Shown here: piece after piece, positions 3,988 through 63,643 of the stretch
Position numbering within the stretch: the stretch's first letter is position 1
How the letters are laid out: each line of letters opens with the position of its first letter
Assembly (NCBI GenBank): GCA_046330075.1
Contig: JAXLTL010000001.1
Coordinates: forward strand, 930,341-994,340
DNA from: Bacteroidia bacterium
Lineage (GTDB): Bacteria; Bacteroidota; Bacteroidia; AKYH767-A; OLB10
DNA length: 64,000 nucleotides
Reading direction: 5' to 3'
The notes under the pieces: generated by a model
What the model saw: the letters and a program-made list of their open reading frames with translations, nothing else
Database searches by the model: none
What the model was told of the DNA's origin: nothing
Made by a program: the position numbers and the translations under genes

Positions 3988-5511
3988 ATGGGTTACTTCC
4001 GCTACTTGTTTTTATTGATGATTTTGCTGCCGGGATCAGCAACAGCACAGTATAATGGTAATTACTGGTGTTTTGGGGATAGTGTTATGATAAATTGGAG
4101 TAACCCTAACAACCCTGTAATTGGGGCTTCTTCTTTTGATTTCCGAAACGGATCATCAAGTATTGCTGATTCTAACGGCATACTTTTATATACAGGTTAT
4201 AATTACAATGTTCAACCAGTCAGACCCTCGGTTTGGAACAAATATAATAATGATATAAATGATTCAATACGGATCAAAGGTGGCCTTTGGTATCATGCCA
4301 GTTTATTTGTACCTGATCCTGGAAATGATTCAATTATTTATTTATTTACAATTGGTGTTACTCAAGCTGAACAGTACGGTCTATACTACTCCAAAATCAA
4401 CTATAAAGCGAACAATGATTCAGGAATAGTCATTCAGAAAAATGTGCAGCTCAATAATTTTCCTGCCTTTGACGCACTCATGTCCGTGCGGCATGGTAAC
4501 GGTAGAGACTGGTGGGTGATATTTCAGAGATATACAACCAGCCTTACCCCATTTAATTCATTTTACCTTTTTCTTGTTTCGCCATCTGGTATTTCAGGTC
4601 CTGCAATTCAGAATATTGGTTCATTACGTAAAACCGGCGGCGGGCATCTGATTTTTAATAGTGATGGTACTCAATTTGTGCAATGCTCTTGGTTAGGTAT
4701 GATCGAACTCTACAATTTCGATCGCTGTACAGGTACCATCACTTCCACCATCCCTATTGAACAAGAACCATCTGTAGCTCCCTACCCACATTGGTATTCC
4801 AGCTGTGCTTTTTCACCAGATGATTCGAAATTATATGTAGCAGACTATTCGCAAACCACTTCACCATCTTATTTATGGCAATATGATTTATTAGCTACGA
4901 ATGTACCTGCGAGCAAAACCTTGATTGATTCATTTGTTGATCCTGATATGGGAATAGCGCAACTTCGCTTGGCCCCCGATAATAAAATATATTTATCAGC
5001 CTCAGATGAAGGTTTTCCATGGCCTTACCCAGATACCATCACCGCCTACACCACCATCAACAACAACCTCAGTGTTATCAACCACCCGGATAGCCTGGGT
5101 GCTGCCTGCGATTTTCAACCCTTCAGCTTTTCCCTCGGTGGTGCCCGCACCTACTACGGCCTTCCCAACAACCCCGATTACGAGTTGGGGGCTTGGGTAG
5201 GTAGTCCTTGTGATACGCTAACTGTGGGCCTCACCCCCGGCCCATCAGAGGAGAAGGGAGCATGGATGCAGGCATGGTATAACCACGAATGGAACATGAT
5301 TCACGTCAACGCGGCGCAGTTGAAAGGGAAGAAAGGTGTGTTGCGGTTGTTTGATATCGAAGGAAGAATCGTTTTCGAAAAACCGGCGGAGGTGGTGGCG
5401 GGTGGGTATTATACGACGGAGATTTATATGAATGAGTTGTCAAGTGGGGTTTATGTCGTCAACCTGGTCACGGATCGGGAGACGTTGTCGTTTAAGACTA
5501 GTAAATACTAG
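3988..5511 (+). CDS. secreted T9SS cargo protein, paralog A of a 3-member family (conserved N-terminal WCFGDS motif plus T9SS CTD)
   Basis: Signal peptide MGYFRYLFLLMILLPGSATAQ. The C-terminal ~115 aa are about 90% nucleotide-identical to 9287..10837 and 39123..40664, ending GVYVVNLVTDRETLSFKTSKY. Confidence 0.75.
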   Translation: MGYFRYLFLLMILLPGSATAQYNGNYWCFGDSVMINWSNPNNPVIGASSFDFRNGSSSIADSNGILLYTGYNYNVQPVRPSVWNKYNNDINDSIRIKGGLWYHASLFVPDPGNDSIIYLFTIGVTQAEQYGLYYSKINYKANNDSGIVIQKNVQLNNFPAFDALMSVRHGNGRDWWVIFQRYTTSLTPFNSFYLFLVSPSGISGPAIQNIGSLRKTGGGHLIFNSDGTQFVQCSWLGMIELYNFDRCTGTITSTIPIEQEPSVAPYPHWYSSCAFSPDDSKLYVADYSQTTSPSYLWQYDLLATNVPASKTLIDSFVDPDMGIAQLRLAPDNKIYLSASDEGFPWPYPDTITAYTTINNNLSVINHPDSLGAACDFQPFSFSLGGARTYYGLPNNPDYELGAWVGSPCDTLTVGLTPGPSEEKGAWMQAWYNHEWNMIHVNAAQLKGKKGVLRLFDIEGRIVFEKPAEVVAGGYYTTEIYMNELSSGVYVVNLVTDRETLSFKTSKY

Positions 5512-5536
5512 TTACAAGAGCATTTGTTGGTTTAAC

Positions 5537-5556
5537 CCTGCCTGCCGGCAGGCAGG
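5537..5556 (+). promoter_or_regulatory. perfect 20-bp palindrome CCTGCCTGCCGGCAGGCAGG in the 3' UTR shared by the CTD genes
   Basis: The identical palindrome and the following CGCAGCGAAAACGGCGACTCGCAACG recur at 11867-11912. A variant sits at 3871-3890. There is no T-tract, so it is not a canonical terminator. Confidence 0.35.
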
Positions 5557-5583
5557 CGCAGCGAAAACGGCGACTCGCAACGT

Positions 5584-7035
5584 CCCGATAGCTATCGCAT
5601 TGGCGTTAAGCTAAGCCGATTACTTTTCAACTCAAACTTCTTGATAATTAGCTTGGTATTAGAATAAAAAAGGCTTCCCCTTTGCATAATTATGTTGCGC
5701 TAACAAACTCTAACATGCGCACGGGAAGCCAAAACAAATATATGCAACATGACTTGAATTCAAAGTTAAAGTTGCTAGGTATCACAAAACTGGAGAGAGA
5801 ATTGGGTTTTAGAAAACGACGTACAGGCAAGATCAGATTGCAAGCACTTGTTGAAAGTTTTTATAAGTCATGTTTTCGGAGTAAATTTTCATTGTCAAGC
5901 TGGGCTTTTCAGTTGTCGGCTCAGGAAGGACTCTGCATTAGCAAGCAAGCTGTCTTTTACAGGGTCAATAGTTCATTAACTAAATTATTGGAAAGACTGC
6001 TCAACAATGCACTCGTTGCACAGATAAAGCCGAGCCAGACTTCACAGAATAGCAGATTTAAAAATGTATATATCCAGGATGGAATGGCAATTAAGTTGCC
6101 GGACAATTTAAGTACAAAATACAAAGGAAATTACTCGCGCGGCAAGATAAAAGCGGTAGCGAAATTGCAAGTAATTTATAATGCCAGTAAACGAAATTTT
6201 AAATCTATTCTGCTAACTCCTTTCACAAGAAATGACCAGACAGCCTCATCCGACATATTGCCGTTACTAAAGAAGGGAGATTTGGTCATACGCGATATGG
6301 GATATTTTGTAATGCCCACCTTTAGACAAATCGTACAACGTAAGGCAGACTTCATCAGTCGATATAAAAAAGATGTGGCCATAATTGATTTAAAGAGTAA
6401 GCAGGCGGTGTCAATAATACAATTATTGAGAGGAAAAACGGTTTTGAAACGAAAAGTTATTCTTGGTGCAAAAGAACAGCTTGAATGCACGTTGATAGCG
6501 GTTAAGGTAGCTCCATGTTTGGCGGAGGCAAGACGAAGAAAAGCCATGAAAGATCGTGATAAGCGACTAAGGTATACCCAGGATAAAAAAATATTGCTTG
6601 GATGGGATATTTATCTGAGTTCTTCACATGATCTGGACGTAAAAGACGTTCAAGATTATTATGCAGCTCGTTGGCAAATAGAGATCATTTTTAAGTCTTG
6701 GAAAAGTGGTTTGAGTTTAGAGAAGTCCATTCCGGGTCAACTGAATTATGATCACTTAGCGGTAACAGTTATCTATCTTCATTTGTTACTGATTGTACTT
6801 ATGATTACGCCCATATACAACACCTTGAAATCACTTATACGTAGGCCCGAAGATAGAGTAAGCCTCTTGAAATCAGTTAAAATCATCTTAATGATGATCA
6901 TTAACAATCGAATACAATTTGACTTAAATGTTGCCTCTAAATTGGCCAACTTTACTCTTTATGAAGTTAGGAACCGGGACACGATGGCAGATAAACTGAG
7001 GATTTTAGCTTAACGCTAATGCGATAGCTATCGGG
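5584..7035 (+). mobile_element. IS4/IS5-superfamily insertion sequence (~1.45 kb) with 28-bp terminal inverted repeats
   Basis: IRL 5584-5611 CCCGATAGCTATCGCATTGGCGTTAAGC and IRR 7008-7035 are reverse complements with 1 mismatch. They flank a single DDE transposase ORF. No clear target-site duplication. Confidence 0.8.
5682..7013 (+). CDS. IS4-like DDE transposase
   Basis: Motif DYYAARWQIEIIFKSWK fits the Y(2)R(3)E(6)K IS4 signature. Candidate catalytic D residues lie in YIQDGMAIKLPD and LVIRDMGYF. The stop codon lies inside IRR. Confidence 0.8.
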   Translation: MHNYVALTNSNMRTGSQNKYMQHDLNSKLKLLGITKLERELGFRKRRTGKIRLQALVESFYKSCFRSKFSLSSWAFQLSAQEGLCISKQAVFYRVNSSLTKLLERLLNNALVAQIKPSQTSQNSRFKNVYIQDGMAIKLPDNLSTKYKGNYSRGKIKAVAKLQVIYNASKRNFKSILLTPFTRNDQTASSDILPLLKKGDLVIRDMGYFVMPTFRQIVQRKADFISRYKKDVAIIDLKSKQAVSIIQLLRGKTVLKRKVILGAKEQLECTLIAVKVAPCLAEARRRKAMKDRDKRLRYTQDKKILLGWDIYLSSSHDLDVKDVQDYYAARWQIEIIFKSWKSGLSLEKSIPGQLNYDHLAVTVIYLHLLLIVLMITPIYNTLKSLIRRPEDRVSLLKSVKIILMMIINNRIQFDLNVASKLANFTLYEVRNRDTMADKLRILA

Positions 7036-7179
7036 AGCAGAGAAATCTTCATAACATTAAAAACATTTTAACCATTTAACACTTTAACTCCCGCCTTACG
7101 GGATTAACATTTATAATACTTATAACCTTCCCCCTACGGTAACCTCAGTTTAATTCAGGATTTTTCTTAAATTTGATTG

Positions 7180-9286: not shown

Positions 9287-10837
9287 ATGTTTAGAATACA
9301 AAAAATAATTTATATAATCGGGGCCCTAATCTATATTAGCCTGAAAACTCATGCGCAGTTTACGAATAACAACTGGTGTTTCGGTGATAGTGCTGGTGTT
9401 CGTTTTGATTCGGCGATAAGTATATTTCGATGTGGAACTGGCTTCACCAGAGGGACAGCAACAATTTCTGATATCAATGGGGATTTGATTTTCTATGGGG
9501 CAACCAGTAACACGACAAATGAATTTACCGGTCAAATTAAACAAGGTAAATTGTTTAATAAATACCATACTGAACTAATAAATGGTGACACTTTAGTTGG
9601 TGGCAATTGGTATCATTGTATGCTTGTTTTACCAAAATCAATAATCGACAGTACATTTTATGTATTTGTGGCTGGGGTGGTAGTACCTGACACCGGTTTA
9701 TGGTATAGCATTGTGGATATGAAATTACAGGGGGGAGTGGGTGCAGTGGTACAAAAAAATGTCAGATTTGAAACGCACCCTGTTCAGGATATGCTCACTG
9801 CCGTGAAACATGGCAATGGCAAGGATTGGTGGTTGGTAACCAGACGATGGCGTTCAAGTGGTGCCGGAATCGGGAATGATGAATTCTGGGTTTATCTTGT
9901 AGATTCAATTGGAATTCATCCATTAGCTGTACAGCATATTGGAACCTCAAATTATAATGGAGCCGGTGATATGAGTTTCAATTCTACAGGTGACAAATTG
10001 GCCTTGTGTGGCTGGGGTAATTATTTGGGTGTTTTCGACTTCGATCGATGCACCGGCCAAATCTCAAATGAAACCCTGATAGAACCGAACACCCAACTGG
10101 GCAACCACCCATACCGTTGGTACACCAGTGTTGTTTTTTCACCAAGTGGGCAATTTTTATATGTGAATTCATCGCAGGAAGCATATCAGACAAGTGGTAA
10201 ACTATATCAGTTTGATTTAACTGCCACAAATATTGCTACTAGCAGGGTATTAATTGACTCTTTTCCTACAAATGCAGAGAATCATGGAATGGAATTAGGA
10301 CCAGATGGGAAAATTTATATTAGTGCACAGGAATTTGGAGGGTGCACTTACCCATGGCCTAGTGGTTGTTTTAGCACTATAAATTCAAACCTCAGTGTAA
10401 TTAACTCTCCAGATAGCTTGGGGTCTGCATCAAACTTCCAACTATTTGCTCTTAACTTAGGAGGCTATCGTGCTTATAGGGGTCTCCCCAACAACCCCGA
10501 TTACGAGCTGGGGGCATGGGTGGGCAGTCCTTGTGATACGTTAACTGTGGGCCTCACCCCCGGCCCCTCTCCAGAGGAGAGGGGAGCCTGGCTGCAGGCA
10601 TGGTATAATCACGAATGGAATATGATCCATGTGAATGCGGCGCAGTTGAAAGGAAAGAAAGGAATGTTGAGGTTAATGGATATAGAAGGCAGAATCGTTT
10701 TCGAAAAACCGGCGGCGGTGTTGGCAGGAGGGTATTATACGACGGAGATTTACATGAATGAGTTGTCAAGTGGGGTTTATGTTGTCAACCTGGTTACGGA
10801 TAGAGAGACGTTGTCGTTTAAAACCAGTAAATTCTAG
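9287..10837 (+). CDS. secreted T9SS cargo protein, paralog B
   Basis: Signal peptide followed by NNNWCFGDSAGVRFD. Homologous along its whole length to 39123..40664(-), with a conserved 3' end ...VNLVTDRETLSFKTSKF. Confidence 0.75.
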   Translation: MFRIQKIIYIIGALIYISLKTHAQFTNNNWCFGDSAGVRFDSAISIFRCGTGFTRGTATISDINGDLIFYGATSNTTNEFTGQIKQGKLFNKYHTELINGDTLVGGNWYHCMLVLPKSIIDSTFYVFVAGVVVPDTGLWYSIVDMKLQGGVGAVVQKNVRFETHPVQDMLTAVKHGNGKDWWLVTRRWRSSGAGIGNDEFWVYLVDSIGIHPLAVQHIGTSNYNGAGDMSFNSTGDKLALCGWGNYLGVFDFDRCTGQISNETLIEPNTQLGNHPYRWYTSVVFSPSGQFLYVNSSQEAYQTSGKLYQFDLTATNIATSRVLIDSFPTNAENHGMELGPDGKIYISAQEFGGCTYPWPSGCFSTINSNLSVINSPDSLGSASNFQLFALNLGGYRAYRGLPNNPDYELGAWVGSPCDTLTVGLTPGPSPEERGAWLQAWYNHEWNMIHVNAAQLKGKKGMLRLMDIEGRIVFEKPAAVLAGGYYTTEIYMNELSSGVYVVNLVTDRETLSFKTSKF

Positions 10838-11277
10838 TTGAATTCAGAATTCAGGATGCAGAATTCAGAATTGCCCAACCTCTCGGGACACTTTTTTGAT
10901 TTTGCGATCAAACACCCAATAGAATCAAAACCTACAGGGTTGTTTTAGTTAATGAAGTCAGAGAAAAAAACGGCCCTCAGCACCGCTGGTTTTTGAAGCG
11001 CAGTGAACGGTGGAATAGACGGAGGGAAGCGGCGAATGGAATGAGCCGATCACCCGACGGCCCGCCGTACACAAGCGAAAAAAATTCCGCGATAGCGGAA
11101 AGGCGGTGGCGGTTCCTGAGCCTGTCGAAGGATGCAGGCCTTGATCTTTTTGGGTTACCCTGAAGCAGAACGAAGTACGCTTCAGGGTGACTGGGGGTTT
11201 AAGGGGACAGCGTCCCCTTGGGATGTTTAAGTATGGAGAATGCTGAATGAAATGGACAGATTTGCCGGATTGGGAGA

Positions 11278-11345
11278 ATGGGGTTTATGTTGTCAACCTG
11301 GTCACGGACAGGGAGACGTTGTCGTTTAAGACTAGTAAATTCTAG
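11278..11345 (+). pseudogene. 3'-terminal fragment of a T9SS CTD coding sequence, unit 1 copy
   Basis: Encodes ...GVYVVNLVTDRETLSFKTSKF* with no upstream gene body. About 94% identical to the 3' end of 9287..10837. Confidence 0.5.
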
Positions 11346-11775
11346 TCGAATTCAGAATTCAAGATGCAGAATTCAGAATTGCCCCCGCCCCGGAATACAA
11401 TTTTTAATTTTGCTGATTAAATAACCAATAGCAAACAAAAACCGACAGGCATTTTAATAGCAATAGAAACAAGAGAAAAAAATCGGCCCTCAGCATATCC
11501 GGTTTTTTGAGTGAAGGAAGTGGCGGAAAAGTTCGAGGGTACCCCGATAGCTATCGGGGCCGAATGAAATGAGGAGATCCCCCCTGAGAACCCGCCACGG
11601 ACAAGCTCAAAAAATTCCGCGAAAGCGGAAAGGATATGGTGCAGGCCTTGATCTTTTTGGTTACTTTTTCTATCAAGAGAAAAAGTGACCAGGGGTTTAA
11701 GGGGACAGCGTCCCCTTGGGATGTTTAAGTATGGAGAATGCTGAATGAAATGGACAGATTTGCCGGATTGGGAGA

Positions 11776-11843
11776 ATGGGGTTTATGTTGTCAACCTGGT
11801 CACGGACAGGGAGACGTTGTCGTTTAAGACCGGGAAATTCTAG
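11776..11843 (+). pseudogene. 3'-terminal fragment of a T9SS CTD coding sequence, unit 2 copy
   Basis: Same fragment ending ...SFKTGKF*. It is followed by the palindrome and 3' UTR sequence that also follows gene 3988..5511. Confidence 0.5.
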
Positions 11844-12016
11844 TTACAGCAGCATTTGTTGGTTTAAACCTGCCTGCCGGCAGGCAGGCGCAGCGAAAAC
11901 GGCGACTCGCAACGAACGCAACGGCACGGGGGAAAACATTTATATCCCTGAGGCTTCGCTCCGGGCGCAAGCGCTTCGCAACTCTGTAACTCAGTAGCTC
12001 TGTAACTCTGTAACTC

Positions 12017-13291
12017 CTACAACCCCGTAGGAACCCATTCCCCCTGATTGTAAATACCAATGGGCTTGCCTTTAAACGTGGTGCCGGTGAAAGGTGTATT
12101 GGACGACTTCGACTGAATATGCTCTTTACCGAAGGTCCACGCTGTAGCCGGATGATAAACAGTGAGGTTGGCGATAGCGCCTTTCGTGATGGAGGGGACA
12201 TCTATACCCAATATACGGCGCGGATTTTTCACCAGTACTTCGTACATCCGTTCCCGTGAGAGGCTTCCCTTAAAGGCTGCATTGAGTACACCGTAAAAAC
12301 TCTCCAGTGATATCATGCCATAGGCTGCGTAGTCAAACTCCACATCCTTCGACTCCAGATCCTCCGGCGAATGGTCGCTGCAGATCACATCGATGGTTCC
12401 GTCGATGACGGCTTCTCTGAGAGCAAGTACATCATCAGCCGTACGCAGTGGTGGCTTCACTTTATACATACTGCTGAATCCTTCCAGGGAGGTATCATCC
12501 AGCAGCAGATGATATACATAAACTTCCGCCGTCACCGGTACTCCTTCTTTCTTCGCTTCACGGATTCTGTTCACTGCATCACGGGTGCTGATACCGGATA
12601 TGTGTATTGGCACTCCTGCATATTTCACCAGACTGAGATCACGTTGTACCGCAATCTCTTCGGCAATGGCAGGTGCTCCCTTGAACCCGAGTAATGTGGT
12701 GAACGGGCTTTCTGTCGCCTGCAGCTTTGCTGTTAAGCCAGGATCATCAGCATATGAAATAACAGGCGCTCCCAGATTGCCCGCATACTGCAGCGCTCTC
12801 AACATGACTCCGCTGTTTCCAATGGCCCGCTTTACGTCCGTGAATGCTACTGCTCCGGCAAGTTTCATATCGTACATTCCCGCAAGCTCTTTTCCCTCGA
12901 GCTGTTCTGTTAATGCTCCACCCGGAAATACATCCACCGGATATCCCGTGGCTCTGGCTTTGATAAAACTAACATCGGCATGCGTTTGTATAGCTGGATG
13001 GGTGGAAGGCATCACTACAACTCCGGTAAAACCTCCTTGTGCAGCGGCCTTTTGACCCGAACGTATCGTTTCTTTTTGCTCATCGCCGGGTTCTCTGAAA
13101 AATGCACGTAAATCAAGCCATCCGGGTGATACTTCCACCCCGGCTTCTTCAACAACCACCGTTTCTGCCGGTGCTGTGAGCCCGTTTCCTGTTTCCTGAA
13201 TGATCCCGTTGTTTACAAGAACATCCGTGTTTTTACCGTGGAGTGATGAGGACGGATCGTTGATCCGTACGTTTTTCAGGAGAAGGTTCAT
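12017..13291 (-). CDS. dihydroorotase-like cyclic amidohydrolase
   Basis: Amidohydrolase fold motifs: VSPGWLDLRAFFREPG, DVICSDHSPE, and a metal-binding HxH-type region. Likely start is MNLLLKNVRI. The start overlaps the upstream stop by ATGA. Confidence 0.7.
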   Translation of the reverse strand: MNLLLKNVRINDPSSSLHGKNTDVLVNNGIIQETGNGLTAPAETVVVEEAGVEVSPGWLDLRAFFREPGDEQKETIRSGQKAAAQGGFTGVVVMPSTHPAIQTHADVSFIKARATGYPVDVFPGGALTEQLEGKELAGMYDMKLAGAVAFTDVKRAIGNSGVMLRALQYAGNLGAPVISYADDPGLTAKLQATESPFTTLLGFKGAPAIAEEIAVQRDLSLVKYAGVPIHISGISTRDAVNRIREAKKEGVPVTAEVYVYHLLLDDTSLEGFSSMYKVKPPLRTADDVLALREAVIDGTIDVICSDHSPEDLESKDVEFDYAAYGMISLESFYGVLNAAFKGSLSRERMYEVLVKNPRRILGIDVPSITKGAIANLTVYHPATAWTFGKEHIQSKSSNTPFTGTTFKGKPIGIYNQGEWVPTGL

Positions 13292-37018: not shown

Positions 37019-38038
37019 TTAGTAGTGCTGTCCATGGCTTTGGTCAACTGTTATGCAAAGGTAGGCATCGGCTGCGGGCTTGTCAAGGCTCATGCCGAGC
37101 GGTTGATTTGTCGGTTTTGATACAGCGGTATCAACCGGCCTTGACAAGCCATCATCCGCTGCAAAGGTGCTCTGCATAAGAGTTGACAAAGCCATTCCTT
37201 GATCCCATTTTTGCTGAGGCGTAATGCGGCCCAGATTTTTATGCTTTCGTTTATTATTATACCAATGCATGTAATCTTCAATATGCTTCTTAGCTTCATA
37301 ATAACTTAGAAATTGATATCGGCAATATAATTCCCTCTGTTGGATGCTGTGGAAGGATTCAATATAGGCGTTTTCTTCGGGTGTAGCAACGTGGGTAAAC
37401 TCTTGACGCGCTTCCATTTCTTGTAATGTGCGTCTGACTTCATTAGCCAGGAACTGCGAACCATTGTCATTGCGGATAATTACGCCCTTTAAATCATATT
37501 TAAGATGCAGATACCGGAACATATCTATCACATCCTTTTTTCGTACACTGGACTGGAATATCCAGTGAATGATCTTTCGGCTGTATATATCCATAATCGA
37601 CAGCTGATAATACCATCTGCTTTCTCCGTGCACCCAGACATACTTGATATCAAGACATAAATACTCCATTGGGCGGGAGGCTTCGACCTTGCGATACTGA
37701 ACCCTCTCTCTCTTGCCCTTTGTCCGGATAACTTTCCCCAATAGCAACTTTTCTTCATCCATGATCCGGTACACTTTTTTATCGTCAATCCAATATCCCA
37801 TTTCCCGAAGCTCTGCCGTCACATTCTGATAGCCATATGCATTGTAAGGTCCCAGAATAATGCCTTTGATCTCCGCTACGACTTGTTGATTCTCTACCAA
37901 CTCATTCTTGAAGAGTGTATGCGTACTCGGCTTTCGGCCCGGTTTACCCTCTGTGGGCTTGTAGTAATAGGAGCTGGAGGGAATTCCTAGCCACTTCATC
38001 AGATCCGTTGTGCTCGCCTTACCTATATACGCCTGCAT
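37019..38038 (-). CDS. IS3 family transposase OrfB (rve integrase core; expressed as OrfAB by -1 frameshift)
   Basis: DDE integrase core. HWYNNKRKHKNLGRITPQQ C-terminal motif typical of IS3/IS150. The -1 frame is open back to the A_AAA_AAA site. Confidence 0.8.
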   Translation of the reverse strand: MQAYIGKASTTDLMKWLGIPSSSYYYKPTEGKPGRKPSTHTLFKNELVENQQVVAEIKGIILGPYNAYGYQNVTAELREMGYWIDDKKVYRIMDEEKLLLGKVIRTKGKRERVQYRKVEASRPMEYLCLDIKYVWVHGESRWYYQLSIMDIYSRKIIHWIFQSSVRKKDVIDMFRYLHLKYDLKGVIIRNDNGSQFLANEVRRTLQEMEARQEFTHVATPEENAYIESFHSIQQRELYCRYQFLSYYEAKKHIEDYMHWYNNKRKHKNLGRITPQQKWDQGMALSTLMQSTFAADDGLSRPVDTAVSKPTNQPLGMSLDKPAADAYLCITVDQSHGQHY

Positions 38039-39122: not shown

Positions 39123-40664
39123 CTAGAATTTACTGGTCTTAAACGACAACGTCTCCCGATCTGTGACCAGGTTGACCACATAAACCCCCTCCGAAATTTC
39201 ATTCATATAAATCTCCGACGTATAATAACCTCCCGCCAATACTTCCATCTGTTTTTCGAAAACGATTCTGCCTTCGATATCCAGCAACCGCAACACCCCT
39301 TTCTTCCCCTTCAACTGCGCAGCATTCACATGAATCATATTCCATTCATGGTTATACCACGCCTGCATCCACGATGCCTCCGGTGTTGGGCCGGGGATGA
39401 GGCCCACAGTTAACGTATCACAGGGACTACCCACCCAGGCGCCCAGCTCGTAATCGGGATTGTTGGGGAGGCCGTAGTAGGTGCGGGCACCGCCGAGGGA
39501 AAAACTGAAGGGTTGAAAATCACAGGCGAGACCAAGGGAATCGGGTTGGTTGATGACGGAGAGGTTTTCGTTGATATAATTCCAGCAGGTAGAAGGATAC
39601 GGAAAGCCGGAGCCTGGACCAGCATAAACACAACTGATGTAAATTTTACCATCCGGTGCCAGCTCCATTCCACCGGGAGTTGCTTCAATTGGAAATGAGT
39701 CTAGTAACACTCTTGAGTTGGGAATATTTGACGCGTTCAAATCAAACTGGTAAATTTTGCTGTTTAGATTATAGATGTCCTGTGCAGAAGTAACATATAG
39801 TTTATTGCCGTCTTCTGAAAATACCGCATCCATATATAGTTTGAACAGGCTTCCTGGAGGCGCATATTGTTCAATTACTGTTTCATTTGAAATCAATCCG
39901 GAACATCTGTCAAAATCAAATACTCCAAGATAACTGCCAAGTCCGGCTAATACTATTCTATCACCTGAATGATTGAAGCTTATATCACCACCATTATCAA
40001 AATGCGAAGTTCCTACAAATTGAGTGGGCAATGGATGTATACCTACTGAGTCTACCAGATACACCCAGAATTCATTGTTCTTTACATACCCCGGCGCATA
40101 GGTCCATCTGCGTGTTACCAGCCACCAGTCCTTTCCATTTCCATGACGTACTGCAGCCAGCATATCTTGCACGGGATGTGTTTCAAATCGGAAATTCTTT
40201 TGCACCACCTGACCTAAACCTCCCTGCAATTTCATGTCCACAATATTTACCCATAAGCCCGTATCGGGATAAACAACTCCGGCCACAAACACATAAAAGG
40301 TGCTGTCCGTAACCGACTTTGGGAGAACGAGCATATCATGATACCATTCACCTCCAACTAAGGTGTCACCATTAAATAACTTTTGATGTAGTTTATTAAA
40401 AAGTTTACCTATCCTTAATAGACTACTATTAGAGTTTGTTGAGTTGCCGGTTGCACCATAAAACAGCAGATTGCCTTGTACATCAGAAATAGAAGAAGTT
40501 CCTCGAAAAAAGCCACTCCCACTTTTGAAAAAGGCAATACCATTATCGAAATTAATTCCAGCACTATCACCAAACACCCAATTATTATTCCTGAATTGAG
40601 CATATGTTTTCAACTGACAGAACGATATCAGTATTAACAGCCAGATAATGTTTCGACTCATCAT
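39123..40664 (-). CDS. secreted T9SS cargo protein, paralog C
   Basis: MMSRNIIWLLILISFCQLKTYAQFRNNNWVFGDSAGINFD N-terminus. Full-length homology to 9287..10837. The same near-identical CTD. Confidence 0.75.
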   Translation of the reverse strand: MMSRNIIWLLILISFCQLKTYAQFRNNNWVFGDSAGINFDNGIAFFKSGSGFFRGTSSISDVQGNLLFYGATGNSTNSNSSLLRIGKLFNKLHQKLFNGDTLVGGEWYHDMLVLPKSVTDSTFYVFVAGVVYPDTGLWVNIVDMKLQGGLGQVVQKNFRFETHPVQDMLAAVRHGNGKDWWLVTRRWTYAPGYVKNNEFWVYLVDSVGIHPLPTQFVGTSHFDNGGDISFNHSGDRIVLAGLGSYLGVFDFDRCSGLISNETVIEQYAPPGSLFKLYMDAVFSEDGNKLYVTSAQDIYNLNSKIYQFDLNASNIPNSRVLLDSFPIEATPGGMELAPDGKIYISCVYAGPGSGFPYPSTCWNYINENLSVINQPDSLGLACDFQPFSFSLGGARTYYGLPNNPDYELGAWVGSPCDTLTVGLIPGPTPEASWMQAWYNHEWNMIHVNAAQLKGKKGVLRLLDIEGRIVFEKQMEVLAGGYYTSEIYMNEISEGVYVVNLVTDRETLSFKTSKF

Positions 40665-57805: not shown

Positions 57806-58393
57806 TTAACCCTTCACTCCGCGAAGAATTAAACGGGTAGTAAACCTGATATCTTCAATAGCGGCTGATTCAGCATGTTGCAGATCAGTACCATTCGGCT
57901 GCACTTTGAATGCCGAAGCTACTTTCAGCAACACCTCTGATAATTTACCGGAATCCGTACGATTGATTTCACCTCTGTGGATTCCTTCTTCCAATACTTC
58001 CTTCAGCAGGTTTTTCTCTTCACTCAGGATTCCCTGACGCAATGTATTGAAAATAGGTTCGATCTTCTTGACTACATCATTTGTAATATCCTGCAGATGC
58101 TTGATCCGTTTGTAAAACCGGGTTCTTTCCGAAAGGAAGTAGATCACTTTCTCTTCCGCTGTACGGAAAGTATGGAGTTTATTACGGACCTCTTCTCTGA
58201 AGCGCTGAGCTTCTGCATAAATCACATCACAGAACAGATCTTCCTTGCTGTTATAATAGTAGTACAAGGAAGCTTTATTCAATTTCACCTTTCCGCCGAT
58301 ATCATCCAGCGTTGTTTTGTCGTATCCGAGTTGGGAAAAACACTCGGTGGCTGCATTCAGAATCATTTGCTTTTTTTCTTCCCTTTTTACCAT
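57806..58393 (-). CDS. TetR/AcrR family transcriptional regulator
   Basis: N-terminal HTH (TTLDDIGGKVKLNKASLYYYY). Confidence 0.8.
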   Translation of the reverse strand: MVKREEKKQMILNAATECFSQLGYDKTTLDDIGGKVKLNKASLYYYYNSKEDLFCDVIYAEAQRFREEVRNKLHTFRTAEEKVIYFLSERTRFYKRIKHLQDITNDVVKKIEPIFNTLRQGILSEEKNLLKEVLEEGIHRGEINRTDSGKLSEVLLKVASAFKVQPNGTDLQHAESAAIEDIRFTTRLILRGVKG

Positions 58394-58658
58394 TTCGTTG
58401 GTTATTGTAAAAGCAAATTTAAGTTCCCCATACTCCTGAGGAATTAAAAATGCTCGAACAAAGCGTTAGAAATGCTGAACGAGAATATCAGGAAACTGAA
58501 CCGGAAAATGGCATTTCTAAACCGGAAAAAGGGGTGATTCGCCCAAGAATTGCCTGAATTCACCTACATTTTTCTATAATTTGCCAAAATACAGGGTTTG
58601 ACATAACTTAGATTAGGGATACAAAAAGGACTTTCAGGTCGTTTTGAATGAACAATCG

Positions 58659-60218
58659 TTAAAACCAGGACTTCTTCCGGCTTCTTGAACTTCCACCCAA
58701 TCCAAGCACACCGAGTAAGCCACGGGTGACTTCGCGGGCGATGGTGCGGGCTACCTGACGGCCAACGGTACTGTCAAGCGCATCTCCGATTACAGAGCCT
58801 TCCTCCTTTTCTGCCTTTTTGGAAGATGCTGTTGGCTCAGCTTCTCCGGCTTCCTGTTTACCCGCTGCATCCAGTTTCCCATTCAGAATTTCATACGCAC
58901 TCTCCCGGTCTACCTGCTGACTGTATTTCTTAAATAGCGGAGAATTACTGATGATTGCATCCTGCTCACTTTCTGTTAACACATCCATTCTGGAGCCGGG
59001 AGCACATAAACAGGTATGCACTAACGGCGAAGGAGTACCTTTTTCAGTGAGTGCGGTAACCAGTGCTTCTCCGATTCCCAATTCGGTAATTAACGTATCT
59101 ACTTTGTAAAAATCTGATTCCGGATAATTCTCAGACACCATTTTAATCGCTTTGCGGTCGTTGGCAGTAAAAGCACGCAGGGCATGCTGAATTTTTAATC
59201 CCAACTGTCCAAGTATTGCTGCAGGAATGTCGACAGGCGTTTGAGTACAGAAAATAATCCCTACACCTTTTGAACGAATGAGTTTAATGATGGACTCTAG
59301 CTGATCCAATAATGCCTTACTCGCTTCTTTAAAGATCAGATGTGCTTCGTCGATAAAGAGTACCAGTTTCGGTTGCTCCATATCGCCTTCTTCCGGAAAG
59401 TGCTGATAGATCTCTGCCAAGAGGCAAAGCATAAAAGTTGAAAAGAGTTTTGGTTTATCCTGGATATCGGTAAGCCGGACAATATGAATAAATCCTTTCC
59501 CGTCATCGCTGATGCGCAGCAGGTCTTCTGTGTCAAAGGATAACTCGCCAAAAAACAATTCAGCACCCTGCTCTTCAATCTCAATAATCTTCCGAAGTAT
59601 AGTCGAGGCAGAAGCTGTTGATATAGCTCCGTACTCTTTCTTAATCTCTTCCTTGCCTTCGTTGGTGCAATATTGCAGTACCTTTTTAAAATCCTTCAGA
59701 TCGAGCAAAGCAAGGCTCTTATCATCGGCATATTTAAACACCAGTGATACAACACCGGATTGCGTATCGTTGAGTCCGAGAATTTTTGAAAACAGCACCG
59801 GCCCGAATTCAGATACCGTAGCTCGCAGGCGCACACCTTTCTCACCCGACAGACTCATCAGTTCACAAGGAAACGATTGTGCCTTCCAGGGTATACCCAG
59901 TTTTTCGTGGCGGGAAGATATCTTATCATTTACAGTACCCGGAGCTGCAATTCCGCTCAGGTCACCTTTGATATCCATCATCATTACATTCACACCGTGT
60001 GCAGACAGTCCTTCCGCAAGTCCTTGCAGCGTTTTTGTTTTTCCGGTTCCTGTTGCGCCGGCAATTAAACCATGCCTGTTCAGGGTAGCAAGCGGAATCT
60101 GAATTTTTGCCTCCGGAACAATCTCCCCGTTCAGCATCCCGGCGCCAATGAGCAGGCTGCCGCCTTTAGGAGTGTAGCCTTTCAGGATTTCTTCTTTGAA
60201 AACTTCTGCGTTACTCAT
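58659..60218 (-). CDS. HerA-like / DUF853 family P-loop ATPase (YjgR-like)
   Basis: Walker A GATGTGKT. Walker B LVLFIDEAH. About 520 aa with a basic C-terminal tail. Confidence 0.7.
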   Translation of the reverse strand: MSNAEVFKEEILKGYTPKGGSLLIGAGMLNGEIVPEAKIQIPLATLNRHGLIAGATGTGKTKTLQGLAEGLSAHGVNVMMMDIKGDLSGIAAPGTVNDKISSRHEKLGIPWKAQSFPCELMSLSGEKGVRLRATVSEFGPVLFSKILGLNDTQSGVVSLVFKYADDKSLALLDLKDFKKVLQYCTNEGKEEIKKEYGAISTASASTILRKIIEIEEQGAELFFGELSFDTEDLLRISDDGKGFIHIVRLTDIQDKPKLFSTFMLCLLAEIYQHFPEEGDMEQPKLVLFIDEAHLIFKEASKALLDQLESIIKLIRSKGVGIIFCTQTPVDIPAAILGQLGLKIQHALRAFTANDRKAIKMVSENYPESDFYKVDTLITELGIGEALVTALTEKGTPSPLVHTCLCAPGSRMDVLTESEQDAIISNSPLFKKYSQQVDRESAYEILNGKLDAAGKQEAGEAEPTASSKKAEKEEGSVIGDALDSTVGRQVARTIAREVTRGLLGVLGLGGSSRSRKKSWF

Positions 60219-60227
60219 GTGTGAATA

Positions 60228-61820
60228 CTATTCTTCAATTATTATCATTTCACTGCTGAACGGCTCCATCAGCGTCAGCAAGGCCTGCACCAGTGCATCT
60301 CCGTGACGCGGATAAAACTGAAAAATGTTCACCAGCCGCTCCTGTGGTGTATCATTCGGACTCGCTTTTTCAAGGATATTCCGGATCTGATTGAGTGCTA
60401 CTTCATGCTTTCTTTTTAGTGCAGCATTTCCTTTGCGCATCAGATTTTCGAGACTGTTAACGGCCTTCTGCGCTTCCGCCTTAACAGAAGGTGCCAGTGT
60501 GGGATCAATTGATTCAAAGGAAGCAGCGAGCGCATCAAATACCTGTTGTAACGATTGCCGGGTCTCCTCCATCTTCGATGAAAGATCTTCCTGAGACGAC
60601 AGCCATTCACGACTCAGCACATCAAATGCACGAAAGACGTCTTTGTTATCAAATCCCATTTGAATAAACTTCCCGAGCATACGCGAAGGCAGAATAACTC
60701 CATTGTTCCTTGGCACAAGCATCGGATAGAATACCTGGTAATGTTCAAACGTGGACTTTAACTGCAGCCAATAAGCGATTTCGCCGGGACCACCAATATA
60801 GGCGATATTGGGCAGTATGATTTCCTGATAAACCGGCCGCAAGATCACATTCGGGCTGAATCGCTCCGGTTGACGGTCAGCAAGGTCAAGAATAAATTCC
60901 TTTGAAAAATCAAGATCGGTATTTACAATATCATAATGTCCGCGTTCATCGCGAACGATTCTTTCTCTCAATTGATCATCCAGATAAAACAGATTAATTT
61001 CCCTCGGATTCACCTGCAGTTTGTAATTGCGGCTCAACTTTTCGTTGGTAGCCACCAGCAGCTGAAAGGAGGGCTGAATAGCCAATTCCTGATGAATGAC
61101 ATTACGCAGGAACTTTTTCAATGAAGGGCGGTCCGCATCCAGCACCAGCAAGCCTTCCTGAGCAAAGAACTGTAAGGCAAAAGCCCGTGTGGCATCTGCC
61201 AGATTCGTTTCACCAAGATACGCTCTCTCCAATAAAGCAATAGCATTGTCTGCAAACTGATCATTGGCGAATAAAGATTTAAGTTCTGACAAAAATGTAT
61301 CCAGTCCTGCTGTCGACATTCGCCCTGTTGCACCGGTCTGATGTGATGACCATCGTATCGTTTTACCATGCAGAAAAACATGGTTTACCTCATCCAGATC
61401 ATGATCCTCTGCACCAAGCCAGAAAACAGGAACGAAATGATAGTCGCTGTATTTTTCATTGAGCCTGTGTGCAAGATTAATCGTCGTGATCAGTTTATAA
61501 AAAAAGAACATGGGTCCGCCGGCCAGACAAGGCTGATGACCTGTTGTAACAGTAAATGTATTGTTACTCCGGAGTGTATTGATCTGTTGTTCCAGCTGTG
61601 GATATTTCCCGAACCAGGCTCTGTGCTGATCAGTCAGTTCGCCGGCAAGTTCTTCGCGATGAAAAGGAAACTCCATCCGGTCACGGATAGCGTCAGGAAA
61701 TGATTCTATTGCCGGTATATATTTGTAAAATTCACGGAGCAGAGGATGGCCTTCCAGATAGTCCATCATCATCTTTCCGTAGATTCCGGTTTCTGACAGC
61801 GGAAGTTTATGCGCTTTCAT
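60228..61820 (-). CDS. bshC: bacillithiol biosynthesis cysteine-adding enzyme BshC
   Basis: 530 aa. N-terminal ...GIYGKMMMDYLEGHPLLREFYKY... matches the BshC family pattern. C-terminal coiled-coil. Confidence 0.6.
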   Translation of the reverse strand: MKAHKLPLSETGIYGKMMMDYLEGHPLLREFYKYIPAIESFPDAIRDRMEFPFHREELAGELTDQHRAWFGKYPQLEQQINTLRSNNTFTVTTGHQPCLAGGPMFFFYKLITTINLAHRLNEKYSDYHFVPVFWLGAEDHDLDEVNHVFLHGKTIRWSSHQTGATGRMSTAGLDTFLSELKSLFANDQFADNAIALLERAYLGETNLADATRAFALQFFAQEGLLVLDADRPSLKKFLRNVIHQELAIQPSFQLLVATNEKLSRNYKLQVNPREINLFYLDDQLRERIVRDERGHYDIVNTDLDFSKEFILDLADRQPERFSPNVILRPVYQEIILPNIAYIGGPGEIAYWLQLKSTFEHYQVFYPMLVPRNNGVILPSRMLGKFIQMGFDNKDVFRAFDVLSREWLSSQEDLSSKMEETRQSLQQVFDALAASFESIDPTLAPSVKAEAQKAVNSLENLMRKGNAALKRKHEVALNQIRNILEKASPNDTPQERLVNIFQFYPRHGDALVQALLTLMEPFSSEMIIIEE

Positions 61821-61829
61821 ACAAGATGA

Positions 61830-63143
61830 TTAGCCGGCGATTTCACCATAGAGGTCGAAGGCTGCTGTAGAAGTAATCTTCACATCAGCAAAATCTCCCA
61901 CACGAATATACGTTTCTTTCGCCGAAACCAGCACCTCGTTGTCAACTTCCGGAGAATCAAACTCTGTGCGGCCAACAAAATAATCTCCTTCTTTACGGTC
62001 AAACAGCACTTTGAATACCTGTCCAACCTTCTGCGCATTGATATCTTCAGAGATCTCCTGCTGCACAGCCATCACAGCTTCTGCACGTTCCTGTTTAACT
62101 TCATCCGGCACATCATCGTTCAGTGAATAGGCATGTGTATTTTCCTCATGAGAGTAAGTAAAAATACCCAGACGATCGAACCTTGCTTTCTCCACGAAAC
62201 GCAGCATGGCCTCATGATCGGCTTCAGTTTCGCCCGGATACCCGGCAATCATGGTTGTGCGCAACGCAATACCCGGCACTTTCTCCCTGAAACGGTCAAT
62301 CAGTTCATAGGTCTTTGCTTCTGTCGTACCACGGCGCATCGACTTCAGCATATGGTCAGAAATATGCTGGAGTGGTATATCGATGTATTTGCAAATGTTC
62401 TCCCTTTCACGCATCACATCCAGTACATCTTCCGGAAACCCACTGGGAAATGCGTAATGCAGGCGTATCCATCCGATGCCTTCTACATCGCTCAGCCGCG
62501 CCATCAGTTCAGCCAGCTTCCGGTCTTTGTAAATGTCCAGTCCATAATAGGTAGAATCCTGCGCAATGAGCAATAACTCTCTGGTGCCGGCAGCCGCAAG
62601 GCTTTTTGCCTCCTTCACCAGTTCATCCATTGGGCGTGATACATGCTTACCACGCATCAGCGGAATCGCACAAAAAGAACAGGGGCGATCACAGCCTTCA
62701 GAGATTTTCATGTAGGCAAAGTGGCGGGGAGTAGTAAGCAATCGTTCGCCGATCAGCTCGTGCTTGTAATCGGCGCCCAGCGTTTTCAACAACAAGGGAA
62801 GGTCACGTGTGCCGAAATAGGCGTCCACATTGGATATTTCTTTTTCCAGATCAGGTTTATATCGTTCCGAGAGGCAACCTGTTACAATCAGCCGGTCGAT
62901 TTTACCCTGTTCTTTCTTTTTTGCGTAGTGCAGAATCGTATCCACAGATTCCTGCTTTGCATTGTCGATGAAGCCACAGGTGTTGATGATTACGATGGAT
63001 GCATCATTTCTGGAACTTTCGTGCACTACTTCAAAATCGTTTGCACGTAACTGACCCATCATTACTTCTGAGTCAACGAGATTCTTCGAGCATCCCAGTG
63101 TGATGACGTTGACTTTATTTTGCCTGAGCGTTTTGGTTTTCAC
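61830..63143 (-). CDS. rimO: ribosomal protein S12 methylthiotransferase RimO (radical SAM MTTase)
   Basis: UPF0004 N-domain Cys triad (LGCSKN, NTCGF, TGCL). Radical SAM CDRPCSFC. TRAM C-terminus. Confidence 0.85.
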   Translation of the reverse strand: MKTKTLRQNKVNVITLGCSKNLVDSEVMMGQLRANDFEVVHESSRNDASIVIINTCGFIDNAKQESVDTILHYAKKKEQGKIDRLIVTGCLSERYKPDLEKEISNVDAYFGTRDLPLLLKTLGADYKHELIGERLLTTPRHFAYMKISEGCDRPCSFCAIPLMRGKHVSRPMDELVKEAKSLAAAGTRELLLIAQDSTYYGLDIYKDRKLAELMARLSDVEGIGWIRLHYAFPSGFPEDVLDVMRERENICKYIDIPLQHISDHMLKSMRRGTTEAKTYELIDRFREKVPGIALRTTMIAGYPGETEADHEAMLRFVEKARFDRLGIFTYSHEENTHAYSLNDDVPDEVKQERAEAVMAVQQEISEDINAQKVGQVFKVLFDRKEGDYFVGRTEFDSPEVDNEVLVSAKETYIRVGDFADVKITSTAAFDLYGEIAG

Positions 63144-63145
63144 TT

Positions 63146-63643
63146 TTAGTAAAAGACGTTAAATTTCGATTTGTCGAATGGAATAATTGTTTCCTGCGGC
63201 ACCATTGAATTGACAAGTTCAAAGACCCTGTTGTATAGTCCAACCCAGGCATTGGTTGCCTTTGAGACATACGTTGTTTCTTTTCTCGTTATCATCAGGT
63301 CGATGGAGCGGGGATAATGCTGCTCATCAATGATGGTGTAATTACTGTAATCATCGAAGTATACTTCACGCAAGGAGTCGACGGGAAACTTCGAAACAAA
63401 GTCGGCTACCGACTTTTTCTCTGCTGCTGTCAGCTTACGGTTCAGATAATTTACATGGGTGCGGCCGTTGTCTGAAACGGCAGTGATTACCAGGCTATCA
63501 TTCGTAAAACGATAGTTCTGTTCCATGTTCATCCTTCCCATGTTATCACGTATCACGACTTCGAAAGTCTGTGCTTCTGCCGACAACATCGCCATGCAAA
63601 GAATCAGGGCTGCAGTTATTGATTTCATCCTTTTATTTTTCAT
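63146..63643 (-). CDS. hypothetical secreted protein
   Basis: Signal peptide MKNKRMKSITAALILCMAMLSAEAQ. The start overlaps the ftsY stop by 11 nt. Confidence 0.45.
   Translation of the reverse strand: MKNKRMKSITAALILCMAMLSAEAQTFEVVIRDNMGRMNMEQNYRFTNDSLVITAVSDNGRTHVNYLNRKLTAAEKKSVADFVSKFPVDSLREVYFDDYSNYTIIDEQHYPRSIDLMITRKETTYVSKATNAWVGLYNRVFELVNSMVPQETIIPFDKSKFNVFY

Follow-up and report, generated by a model that had tools for sequence, protein, structure and literature searches.

Large orphan structured noncoding RNAs (ncRNAs) of bacteria, such as HEARO/omega-RNA, GOLLD, ROOL, and raiA, are known from comparative genomics. We know of few ncRNAs from the uncultured Bacteroidia of activated sludge and freshwater. 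Here, we describe an RNA of this kind from a 64,000-nucleotide stretch of DNA (the window) of a Bacteroidia bacterium of the OLB10 lineage (GenBank assembly GCA_046330075.1, contig JAXLTL010000001.1, positions 930,341 to 994,340 of the forward strand). Two copies of the RNA lie in tandem behind a gene for a type IX secretion system (T9SS) cargo protein. Like the large orphan ncRNAs, the RNA measures ~170-260 nt and has a multi-helix junction, invariant unpaired nucleotides, and strong covariation; like many of them, it is multi-copy, and its function is not evident from its sequence. In contrast to HEARO/omega-RNA and its like, it has no Rfam match and no linked IscB/TnpB gene, and it is not found in phage or plasmid collections. 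It also differs from the large orphan ncRNAs in that it always lies in the 3' region of one cargo family, usually fused to a truncated copy of the C-terminal secretion domain (CTD).

Other described systems share part of this arrangement. Polymorphic-toxin genes of the rhs/cdiA type are followed by arrays of orphan C-terminal cassettes. In both cases, a full-length gene precedes promoterless, 5'-truncated copies of its 3' region, each starting from a conserved motif and open to duplication, deletion, and swapping by homologous recombination. Unlike in rhs/cdiA arrays, the repeat described here is a conserved secretion tag and not a variable toxin, and swapping adds no diversity. Moreover, a structured RNA lies between the repeats, there is no immunity gene, and the orphan copies decay. 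Cis-mobilizable elements (CIMEs; ICESt1/ICESt3 family) are integrase-less elements that accrete in tandem at attachment (att) sites. CIMEs and miniature inverted-repeat transposable elements (MITEs) resemble the present units, which are small, lack an enzyme gene, stand in tandem, and are each followed by a copy of a gene 3' end. In contrast to CIMEs and MITEs, the units lack a fixed att core (the repeat is undetectable, 66 nt, or ~235 nt long), terminal inverted repeats, and a short target-site duplication, and no cognate integrase was found among the scanned open reading frames (ORFs) of the window (those outside 57806-63781; this scope applies to all ORF scans below). Bacteroides has families of paralogous and 3' untranslated region (3'UTR)-derived small RNAs, for example the FopS family. 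As in these families, paralogous copies occur per genome beside genes for surface or secreted proteins, with a single-stranded conserved stretch that is a possible seed, but the RNA described here is much larger and more elaborately folded. The template and variable repeats of diversity-generating retroelements (DGRs) offer a further parallel, with a gene 3'-end copy downstream and beside a structured RNA. Unlike in DGRs, no reverse transcriptase was found here, and the differences between copies are not adenine-specific.

A structured RNA in two tandem units

The cargo gene in question (gene B) is one of three paralogs (A, B, and C) in the window. Directly 3' of its stop codon lies unit 1 (U1; 10838-11345, 508 nt), with unit 2 (U2; 11346-11843, 498 nt) in tandem. 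Each unit is closed by a 66-nt copy of the CTD 3' end with the stop codon TAG (11280-11345 in U1, 11778-11843 in U2). The gene B CTD end and its copy in U1 differ at five positions, all synonymous (T>C, T>C, A>G, A>G, and C>T). The 3'UTR after U2 is that of paralog A (11777-11914 compared with 5445-5582, 93% identical over 138 nt). An earlier reading of the sequence letters (the original prediction) had described this layout, namely two ~500-bp units behind the stop codon of gene B, each ending with ~66 nt of CTD end and stop, and then the palindrome and 3'UTR of paralog A. All of this was recovered, and the hairpins it had named (P4, P5, and P6 below) were found in place. The two units form a mosaic, near-identical over ~45 nt on the left, ~74% identical in a middle part with indels, and, apart from 3 nt near the end, 100% identical over ~150 nt on the right. 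The unit motifs gave 0 matches in shuffled sequence.

The fold of the RNA was built from nine distinct, related copies, aligned over a core of ~172 nt, with RNAalifold used for the consensus. The core comprises the helices P1 and P2, a tight three-way junction with the long irregular P3, the hairpin P4, and the tail UUGAUCUUUUUG. Together with P5 and P6, the RNA measures about 230-260 nt. P1 (GGCC/GGCC plus CA/UG) and P2 (six pairs) are covarying long-range helices that enclose ~150 nt. Between copies, P2 varies as CACCGC/GCGGUG, CAUAUCC/GGAUAUG, CACCUCC/GGAGGUG, or CCCUUCC/GGAAGGG. P4 has the form UUCCGC-GNRA-GCGGAA (TTCCGC-GNNA-GCGGAA in DNA) and is located at 11085-11100 in U1 and 11615-11630 in U2. 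The tail, 3' of P4, is 12 nt long, invariant, and predicted to be single-stranded. Further invariant unpaired stretches are CUCAGCA, GGGAAGC, GAUCNCCC, and an A-run before P4. On the 5' side of the RNA, another A-run precedes CGGCCCUCAGC. P6 (AAGGGGAC-AGC-GTCCCCTT) is a G/C-rich hairpin 3' of P5.

Across the nine copies, compensatory changes on both sides of the helix were present in 18 of the 43 pairs tested. Standard pairing was retained in 97.4% of the cells, compared to 86.4% in column shuffles, and none of 500 shuffles matched the alignment on any measure. When the 3' partners were slid by 1-3 columns, only 41-50% of the cells were paired, with 2-6 covarying pairs. These nine distinct, related sequences therefore share a conserved structure with compensatory changes beyond the controls, which demonstrates that the RNA fold is under selection. 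G-U cells outnumbered C-A cells (8 vs 2), favoring the + strand, and the folding energy of U1 was lower on the + strand (-110.7 kcal/mol, z = -4.5) than on the - strand (-89.2 kcal/mol, z = -3.0). Therefore, the RNA probably has the same direction as the cargo genes.

The original prediction had argued from covarying stems for a structured RNA under selection and had pointed to a covariance model as the means of checking it. A model was built from the core, and the covariation across the copies exceeded that of the shuffled and slid controls. The covariation was located in helices P2, P3, and P4, and for these the argument stands. It fails for P5, where the different stems of the two units had been taken for compensatory substitutions. 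P5 has a basal stem, GGUUAC/GUGAC, common to both versions, which carries one of two alternative distal modules. Type 1 (…CUGAAGC-N12-GCUUCAG…), found in U1, also occurs in the copies L030a, L078, L086, and L103 of other assemblies. Type 2 (…CUUUUUCU-AUCAAG-AGAAAAAG…), found in U2, also occurs in L030b, L077, L087, L091, and L102. Both types are thus present unchanged in other genomes, and the difference between the units is a module swap. The three core subtypes and two P5 types occur in all six combinations.

Copies outside the window were sought by blastn, as the original prediction had suggested, and were found. A search with the units against 65 loci with gene B homologues, from ~10 Bacteroidia metagenome-assembled genomes (MAGs) mostly of activated sludge, matched only L030, where two unit-like copies lie in tandem directly 3' of the gene. 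With 1 of 65 paralog loci in these reference MAGs, the module is rare. The 20-mer TGCAGGCCTTGATCTTTTTG was invariant in the four copies of the window and L030; a scan of a metagenome collection for it returned 11 contigs, 7 of them with the same element. In all, ~12 distinct copies are known, from a narrow set of uncultured Bacteroidia on sludge and freshwater contigs. The covariance model scored U1 at 173.4 bits (E 8e-45) and U2 at 159.6 bits (E 4e-41), within a range of 160-195 bits that also holds L030 (both copies), L077, L078/81, L080/83, L087, L088/89, L091-93/96, L102, and L103. Across the window and ~0.9 Mb of related loci, it gave no match beyond the known copies. One metagenome assembly (WBZP01) has at least five RNA loci (L077, L078, L083, L086, and L088). 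A spurious ORF running across the RNA, used as the query of a protein search, gave five matches, all from the same kind of locus, and an exact 23-mer of P6 had no match in the genome collection. The RNA is thus multi-copy, and it is older than the split of the sampled lineages.

Between the window and L030, the RNA cores are 68-78% identical, compared to 63% for the adjoining CTD DNA, 60% for the N-domain DNA, and ~42% for the N-domain protein. Judged by these identities, the RNA is more conserved than the neighboring protein genes. The L030b core is 86% identical to those of L078/L087. The cores of U1 and U2 are only 74% identical to each other, whereas U2 and L102 are 93% identical. U1 and U2 are therefore old subtypes and not recent duplicates. 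From the sequence mosaic, the flanks of these two old subtypes appear to have been homogenized.

A search of the whole window with Rfam 15 (4227 models) at gathering thresholds returned tRNA only. For the region 10700-12100 at E <= 10, the best score was 17.8 bits, compared to cut-offs of 58.6 and 41.4, and is at chance level. In four other RNA loci, there was no match at the RNA at E <= 1. As a positive control, a canonical cobalamin riboswitch was detected with 105.9 bits at 7607-7798 of L030, ~4 kb downstream of the tandem RNAs. The RNA itself resembles a cobalamin riboswitch in one part (GGGAAGC…CCCGCCAC), and Rfam gave no support for this identity. ARAGORN predicted neither a tRNA nor a tmRNA. 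The RNA had no match in viral-contig, phage, and plasmid collections, and no description of it was found in the literature searched. As far as these searches extend, no match was found to any described family, and the RNA is previously undescribed; the original prediction had not recognized it as a described element either. An origin of the RNA from the coding sequence of a paralog N-domain was also rejected; local alignments scored as shuffled sequences do (z -1 to +2.9).

Orphan CTDs and the cargo-gene family

The sole Pfam match of the gene B protein was Por_Secre_tail, the T9SS sorting domain. Exact-protein look-ups for gene B, the 32-aa ORF, P0007, and P0027 returned no recorded entry. 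The N-domains of paralogs A, B, and C are only 41-64% identical (alignment, tblastn). In contrast, their last ~130 codons (linker plus CTD) are 87-92% identical at the protein level, over the C-terminal segments 10481-10837 in B, 5158-5511 in A, and 39123-39480 (-) in C. Inside one MAG, CTD DNA is ~95% identical. The sequence comparison indicates that the secretion tag and the 3'UTR evolve in concert across a family of at least a dozen copies.

All copies of the RNA lie 3' of a cargo-gene CTD or of a family 3'UTR. Where the upstream DNA was readable, they start 65-130 nt past the CTD stop codon or past a family-type 3'UTR (…CATTTGTYGRTTTAAACGC…), on the same strand. In all lineages but one (L030), the RNA is fused to a 5'-truncated CTD. 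The downstream neighbors vary by locus and are either another paralog or convergent unrelated genes. In five related species, the orthologous locus holds a 700-aa gene, the gene B ortholog, and an ordinary 3'UTR, with no RNA; the comparison with relatives lacking the units, which the original prediction had proposed, thus gave the gene pair alone. The 3'UTR of paralog A has no RNA either and is interrupted by an insertion sequence (IS). On the JGI freshwater contigs L091-93 (~2216-2910 in L091), the module lies between a NifU-like gene and sucB (2-oxoglutarate dehydrogenase E2). It consists there of a partial CTD (54-aa ORF), the RNA, and a full orphan CTD (71-aa ORF), with no full-length paralog on the contig. 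The proposal of the original prediction that the units are a cassette-like module of the T9SS cargo family was correct in that they are confined to the 3' regions of one paralog family; as a regular part of that family they are too rare, at the 1 of 65 loci given above.

In the relatives, tblastn showed that the RNA is followed by a whole CTD copy of ~235 nt (70-71 codons) without the N-domain. This orphan CTD begins at the junction WYNHEW|NMIHVN, where the protein family is most conserved (QAWYNHEWNMIHVN), and the intact orphan ORF begins with MIHVNAA in most contigs. In L077, L078, L080, L088, L091, and L102, the repeat measures ~235 nt, compared to the 66 nt of the window. Behind the L030 RNAs, a CTD remnant was not detectable; remnants suspected there by eye were not significant against shuffles (z = 0.4 and -0.2). 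Compared to the full-length orphans, and judged by eye, the orphan CTDs of U1 and U2 each miss ~150 nt internally. What is left in U1 is a 7-codon mini-ORF and then a 32-codon ORF (11247-11345), which closes with the 22 codons of the 66-nt CTD end. U1 and U2 share the deletion base for base, and thus it arose once and was then copied. Set against the relatives, the 66-nt repeat is apparently the decayed remnant of a longer CTD copy. A full-length paralog precedes the orphan CTDs of the window, L080, L083, and L087.

Among the copies with recovered DNA, eight distinct loci have an intact orphan ORF. The ORF carries a frameshift in L083 and L087 and an internal deletion in the window, and none is detectable in L030. 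At all loci of the last three kinds (4 of ~12 distinct loci), the RNA is intact. A protein search with the orphan ORF returned 38 such proteins, 24 of which are 70-72 aa long, and the RNA lies directly upstream on the same strand for every CTD-only ORF with recovered upstream DNA. In many copies, a short mini-ORF abuts or overlaps the start codon of the orphan ORF. The ratio of nonsynonymous to synonymous substitution rates (dN/dS), determined pairwise among eight distinct orphan ORFs, was 0.1-0.4. However, the orphan CTDs do not group as a clade of their own, distinct from functional CTDs, and the L078 orphan is 88% identical to paralog A of the window. Since the orphans resemble functional CTDs at least as closely as they resemble one another, the low dN/dS may come from inheritance or gene conversion, and purifying selection on the orphan ORF itself could not be demonstrated. 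The orphan ORF has no signal peptide and therefore cannot be a T9SS substrate. From these comparisons, we conclude that the RNA, and not the orphan ORF, is probably the conserved entity.

Features of the surrounding 3' regions

The coordinates of the two units, the paralogs, and the neighboring elements are collected in Table 1.

Table 1. Features of the window that belong to, or are compared with, the two RNA units
Feature	Position	Strand	Basis or remark
Paralog A	3988-5511	+	Gene plus 3'UTR 3988-5597; comparison locus without RNA
IS4-family IS	5598-7021		DDE_Tnp_1 transposase ORF 5682-7013; target-site duplication 5586-5597 and 7022-7033
Paralog B (gene B), T9SS cargo gene, 516 aa	9287-10837	+	ORF list, Pfam Por_Secre_tail match, alignment with A and C, tblastn
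CTD of gene B	10577-10837	+	tblastn map
CTD 3' end of gene B, original of the downstream 66-nt repeats	10772-10837	+	
U1 spacer	10838-10959	+	CAGAATT-type heptamers 10840-10876, then A/T-rich stretch closing in A-run
RNA core copy 1, subtype I	10960-11153	+	P1, P2, long P3, P4, tail UUGAUCUUUUUG; covariance model, fold
Optional 22-nt insert in RNA core copy 1	11105-11127	+	
P5 type 1 and P6 of U1	P5 11153-11191, P6 11201-11219	+	
Decayed orphan CTD, U1	11223-11345	+	Translation, tblastn CTD residues 65-86, comparison with relatives
U2 spacer	11346-11472	+	Heptamer start as in U1 (11348-11384), then diverged A/T-rich stretch
RNA core copy 2, subtype II	11473-11660	+	Covariance model; 93% identical to L102
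Palindrome CCCCGATAGCTATCGGGG inserted at P3 tip of copy 2	11542-11559	+	
P5 type 2 and P6 of U2	P5 11659-11690, P6 11699-11717	+	
Decayed orphan CTD, U2	11721-11843	+	32-codon ORF 11745-11843, 66-nt CTD end 11778-11843
Family-type 3'UTR common to paralog A (5513-5582)	11844-11935	+	Palindrome CCTGCCTGCCGGCAGGCAGG at 11869-11888
Paralog C	39123-40664	-	

In both units, the spacer begins directly 3' of the stop codon with CAGAATT/GAATTCA heptamers. Heptamers of the same type follow the stop codon of an unrelated gene in another MAG (L071, 5496-5537). They are a microsatellite-like tract and not a terminal repeat. A spacer of the U1 type also lies 5' of the RNA in L080 and L083.

The 3'UTR of paralog A runs into the palindrome CCCGATAGCTATCG, which is the site of the IS insertion, and continues behind the IS with GGGAGCAGAGAAAT and ordinary UTR (7022-7060). 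The IS belongs to the IS4 family, is located within the palindrome CCCGATAGCTATCGGG, and is flanked by the 12-bp duplication CGATAGCTATCG. The same IS was also found at L078, L081, L086, L088, and L103. At four loci outside the window, it occupies this same palindrome, in one orientation or the other, and sits ~30 nt upstream of the RNA; the L086 copy interrupts and truncates a subtype-II RNA. This IS is also present where the RNA is absent, and its targeting looks palindrome-specific. The 3' end of paralog C is ~1 kb away from a gene for an IS3-type (rve) transposase (37019-38038, -), so that IS elements adjoin two of the three paralogs in the window.

Small perfect or near-perfect palindromes come and go in the UTRs and in the variable parts of the RNA. 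They include CCCCGATAGCTATCGGGG, CCTGCCTGCCGGCAGGCAGG, CTGAAGC-N12-GCTTCAG, and CCCGAGCAACGCCTCGGG, and were located at 11542-11559, 11869-11888, 5537-5556, and 11160-11185 in the window, at 3164-3196 in L030, and at ~395-415 in L078. In the window, they are restricted to these 3' regions. They resemble tiny insertable hairpins. Short-read assemblies (Logan/SRA) of the same organism break at the palindrome/UTR repeat, with contigs beginning at ~11891 (L001 and L011 ends). Short-read MAGs thus systematically break or collapse the locus, and reference genomes may under-represent the RNA.

The scanned window ORFs encode only two enzymes of DNA mobility, the IS4-type DDE transposase and the IS3-type rve transposase. 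A search among them gave no recombinase of the tyrosine or serine type, no reverse transcriptase, and no TnpB/IscB. A scan for inverted repeats gave internal hairpins and the self-palindromic GAATTC, with no pair of left and right ends and thus no terminal inverted repeats. In the window and the long loci, the RNA has no adjacent tnpB, iscB, or IS110 gene, the neighbor expected of an omega-RNA or bridge-RNA of IS200/605 and IS110 elements. An IS110-family transposase gene was seen at a single locus, L089 (789-1805, -), just past the orphan CTD and on the opposite strand. The integron attC motif GTTRRRY, sought by eye, fits one unit junction only. A DGR or retron was rejected, as no reverse transcriptase is encoded by the scanned ORFs and the mismatches of the CTD copies are not adenine-specific.

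Origin of the arrays and meaning of the RNA

The explanation that we favor, with modest confidence, is a free-standing or 3'UTR-derived structured RNA whose arrays arise by homologous recombination. Each unit would consist of a spacer, the structured ncRNA, and a 5'-truncated, decaying CTD copy, with the RNA acting in its own right, independent of the CTD remnant behind it. Its transcription probably accompanies or directly follows that of the upstream cargo gene, with the RNA embedded in or derived from the 3'UTR of that gene; as no Bacteroidetes-type -7 motif was seen upstream by eye, co-transcription with the upstream gene is plausible. The RNA probably binds a protein or ligand via its invariant unpaired nucleotides. 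A free-standing or 3'UTR-derived RNA with a specific partner is the likeliest reading, given its fold, its invariant unpaired stretches, and its persistence at loci with a decayed ORF. The tandem array and the seemingly regenerated CTD ends would then be by-products of ordinary homologous recombination. CTDs and 3'UTRs that evolve in concert would supply direct repeats of 250+ bp. Unequal or Campbell-type crossing-over between these could duplicate, delete, or convert the CTD-spacer-RNA segment, or carry it from one paralog to another, with no need for a dedicated recombinase. The orphan CTDs of the window would later have lost ~150 nt internally, so that the 66-nt ends were left. The homology that module copies share has an abrupt start at the RNA 5' end and variable 3' limits, within or past the CTD. 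Cores, P5 modules, and optional inserts are reshuffled among copies. These sharp 5' and variable 3' limits, the reshuffled modules, and identical flanks on different cores point to homologous recombination and gene conversion.

Several observations weigh against this explanation. The case for recombination is drawn from mosaic patterns in the sequences, and the module in the NifU-sucB interval of L091-93 fits mobility better than local unequal crossing-over. By eye, no Bacteroidetes-type -7 motif was found upstream of the RNA; a sigma-70 promoter scan is uninformative for Bacteroidota. Since several copies were gathered with conserved-sequence keys, part of the tail's conservation stems from ascertainment. 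Most orphan CTDs are intact ORFs of 70-71 codons, and their dN/dS fits a translated gene too. Finally, the constant RNA-CTD junction outside L030 could be a functional link rather than a scar.

The RNA might be the RNA part of a non-autonomous mobile or selfish module that spreads among the cargo paralogs, helped in trans (by a reverse transcriptase or an RNA-guided recombinase or nuclease) or by the CTD as a homology arm, with its fold selected for propagation and not for a host function. We consider this unlikely, though it accounts for much: the module is multi-copy (two copies in the window, at least five loci in WBZP01), sits in a housekeeping interval without a full paralog, is missing from the orthologous locus of five related species, and joins the CTD at the most conserved stretch of the family. 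In addition, L077 and L080 are 95% identical over positions -7 to +412 with unrelated upstream flanks, the homology beginning exactly at the RNA 5' end. However, no linked enzyme gene was found and the neighbors differ at each locus, there are neither terminal repeats nor a target duplication of constant length, the 3' homology limits vary as RecA-type tracts do, phage, plasmid, and viral-contig collections lack a match, and every copy lies in the 3' regions of one paralog family. In a bolder form of the same idea, which we hold to be improbable, the RNA and the most conserved segment of the family (the N-domain/CTD junction and the CTD) form a self-propagating RNA gene that promotes or directs its own copying into paralogs. 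Possible routes would be an RNA-guided or RNA-templated step in trans or the use of the CTD as a built-in homology arm. If true, a secretion-signal coding sequence would be the target of a non-autonomous mobile RNA module of a new type. The integrative mechanism of the original prediction, in which att-site or MITE-like elements each duplicate the 66-nt CTD end on insertion, now seems barely credible. The tandem units with the same 66 nt and stop in each, the original 3'UTR after the last, and the unit-free locus of the relatives had spoken for it. Yet the direct repeat has no fixed extent: the relatives repeat the whole CTD (~235 nt) from a different fixed point, and in L030 no remnant is detectable. 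Moreover, U1 and U2 share one internal deletion, which was copied once and does not reflect two insertions. Site-specific integration is therefore not supported, no integrase having been found among the scanned ORFs, and neither is a MITE, as the units have neither terminal inverted repeats nor a short target-site duplication.

The orphan ORF suggests another function for the RNA. As a riboswitch-like or protein-binding cis-regulatory leader, it might control translation or transcription of the downstream CTD-only ORF of 70-71 aa or, in arrays, read-through into the following paralog. The RNA directly precedes every CTD-only ORF with recovered upstream DNA, 24 of the 38 database proteins are 70-72 aa long with a dN/dS of 0.1-0.4, a mini-ORF lies at the start codon in many copies, and the many invariant unpaired nucleotides are aptamer-like. 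Furthermore, the optional insert of U1, L086, and L097 can pair with the P1 3' strand before a U-run, forming a terminator-like hairpin. This alternative hairpin is possible only in copies with the optional insert, however, and the low dN/dS can be explained by gene conversion. The ORF lacks a signal peptide and is thus no T9SS cargo. The RNA persists intact where the ORF has a frameshift (L083 and L087), has shrunk to 32 codons (window), or is undetectable (L030), and we regard a leader as rather doubtful. It is very improbable that there is no functional RNA at all and that the units are a decaying segmental duplication of a gene 3' end with palindromes acting at the DNA level, such as repetitive extragenic palindromic (REP)-like elements or terminators of convergent genes. 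Small palindromes (CCCGATAGCTATCGGG, CCTGCCTGCCGGCAGGCAGG, and CTGAAGC..GCTTCAG) do come and go in the 3' regions, P4 followed by a U-run on the - strand makes a terminator-like site, and the CTD fragments are clearly decaying. Such palindromes do not account for long-range P1/P2 helices that covary around ~150 nt (CACCGC/GCGGUG, CAUAUCC/GGAUAUG, and CCCUUCC/GGAAGGG), nor for the share of double-changed pairs, which is far beyond that in shuffled and slid controls. Besides, the core is more conserved than the adjoining coding DNA and has no similarity to the coding sequence of the gene.

The RNA thus adds a well-supported structured class of ~230 nt from uncultured activated-sludge and freshwater Bacteroidia. 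Its invariant unpaired nucleotides and tight three-way junction suggest a specific ligand or protein partner. For annotation, the 70-71-aa "hypothetical proteins" that start with MIHVNA… are 5'-truncated CTD copies, and the RNA lies upstream of each one checked. On the explanation by homologous recombination, the locus would be a natural case of an RNA gene that rides on the repeated coding sequence of a concertedly evolving T9SS cargo family, without a recombinase of its own.

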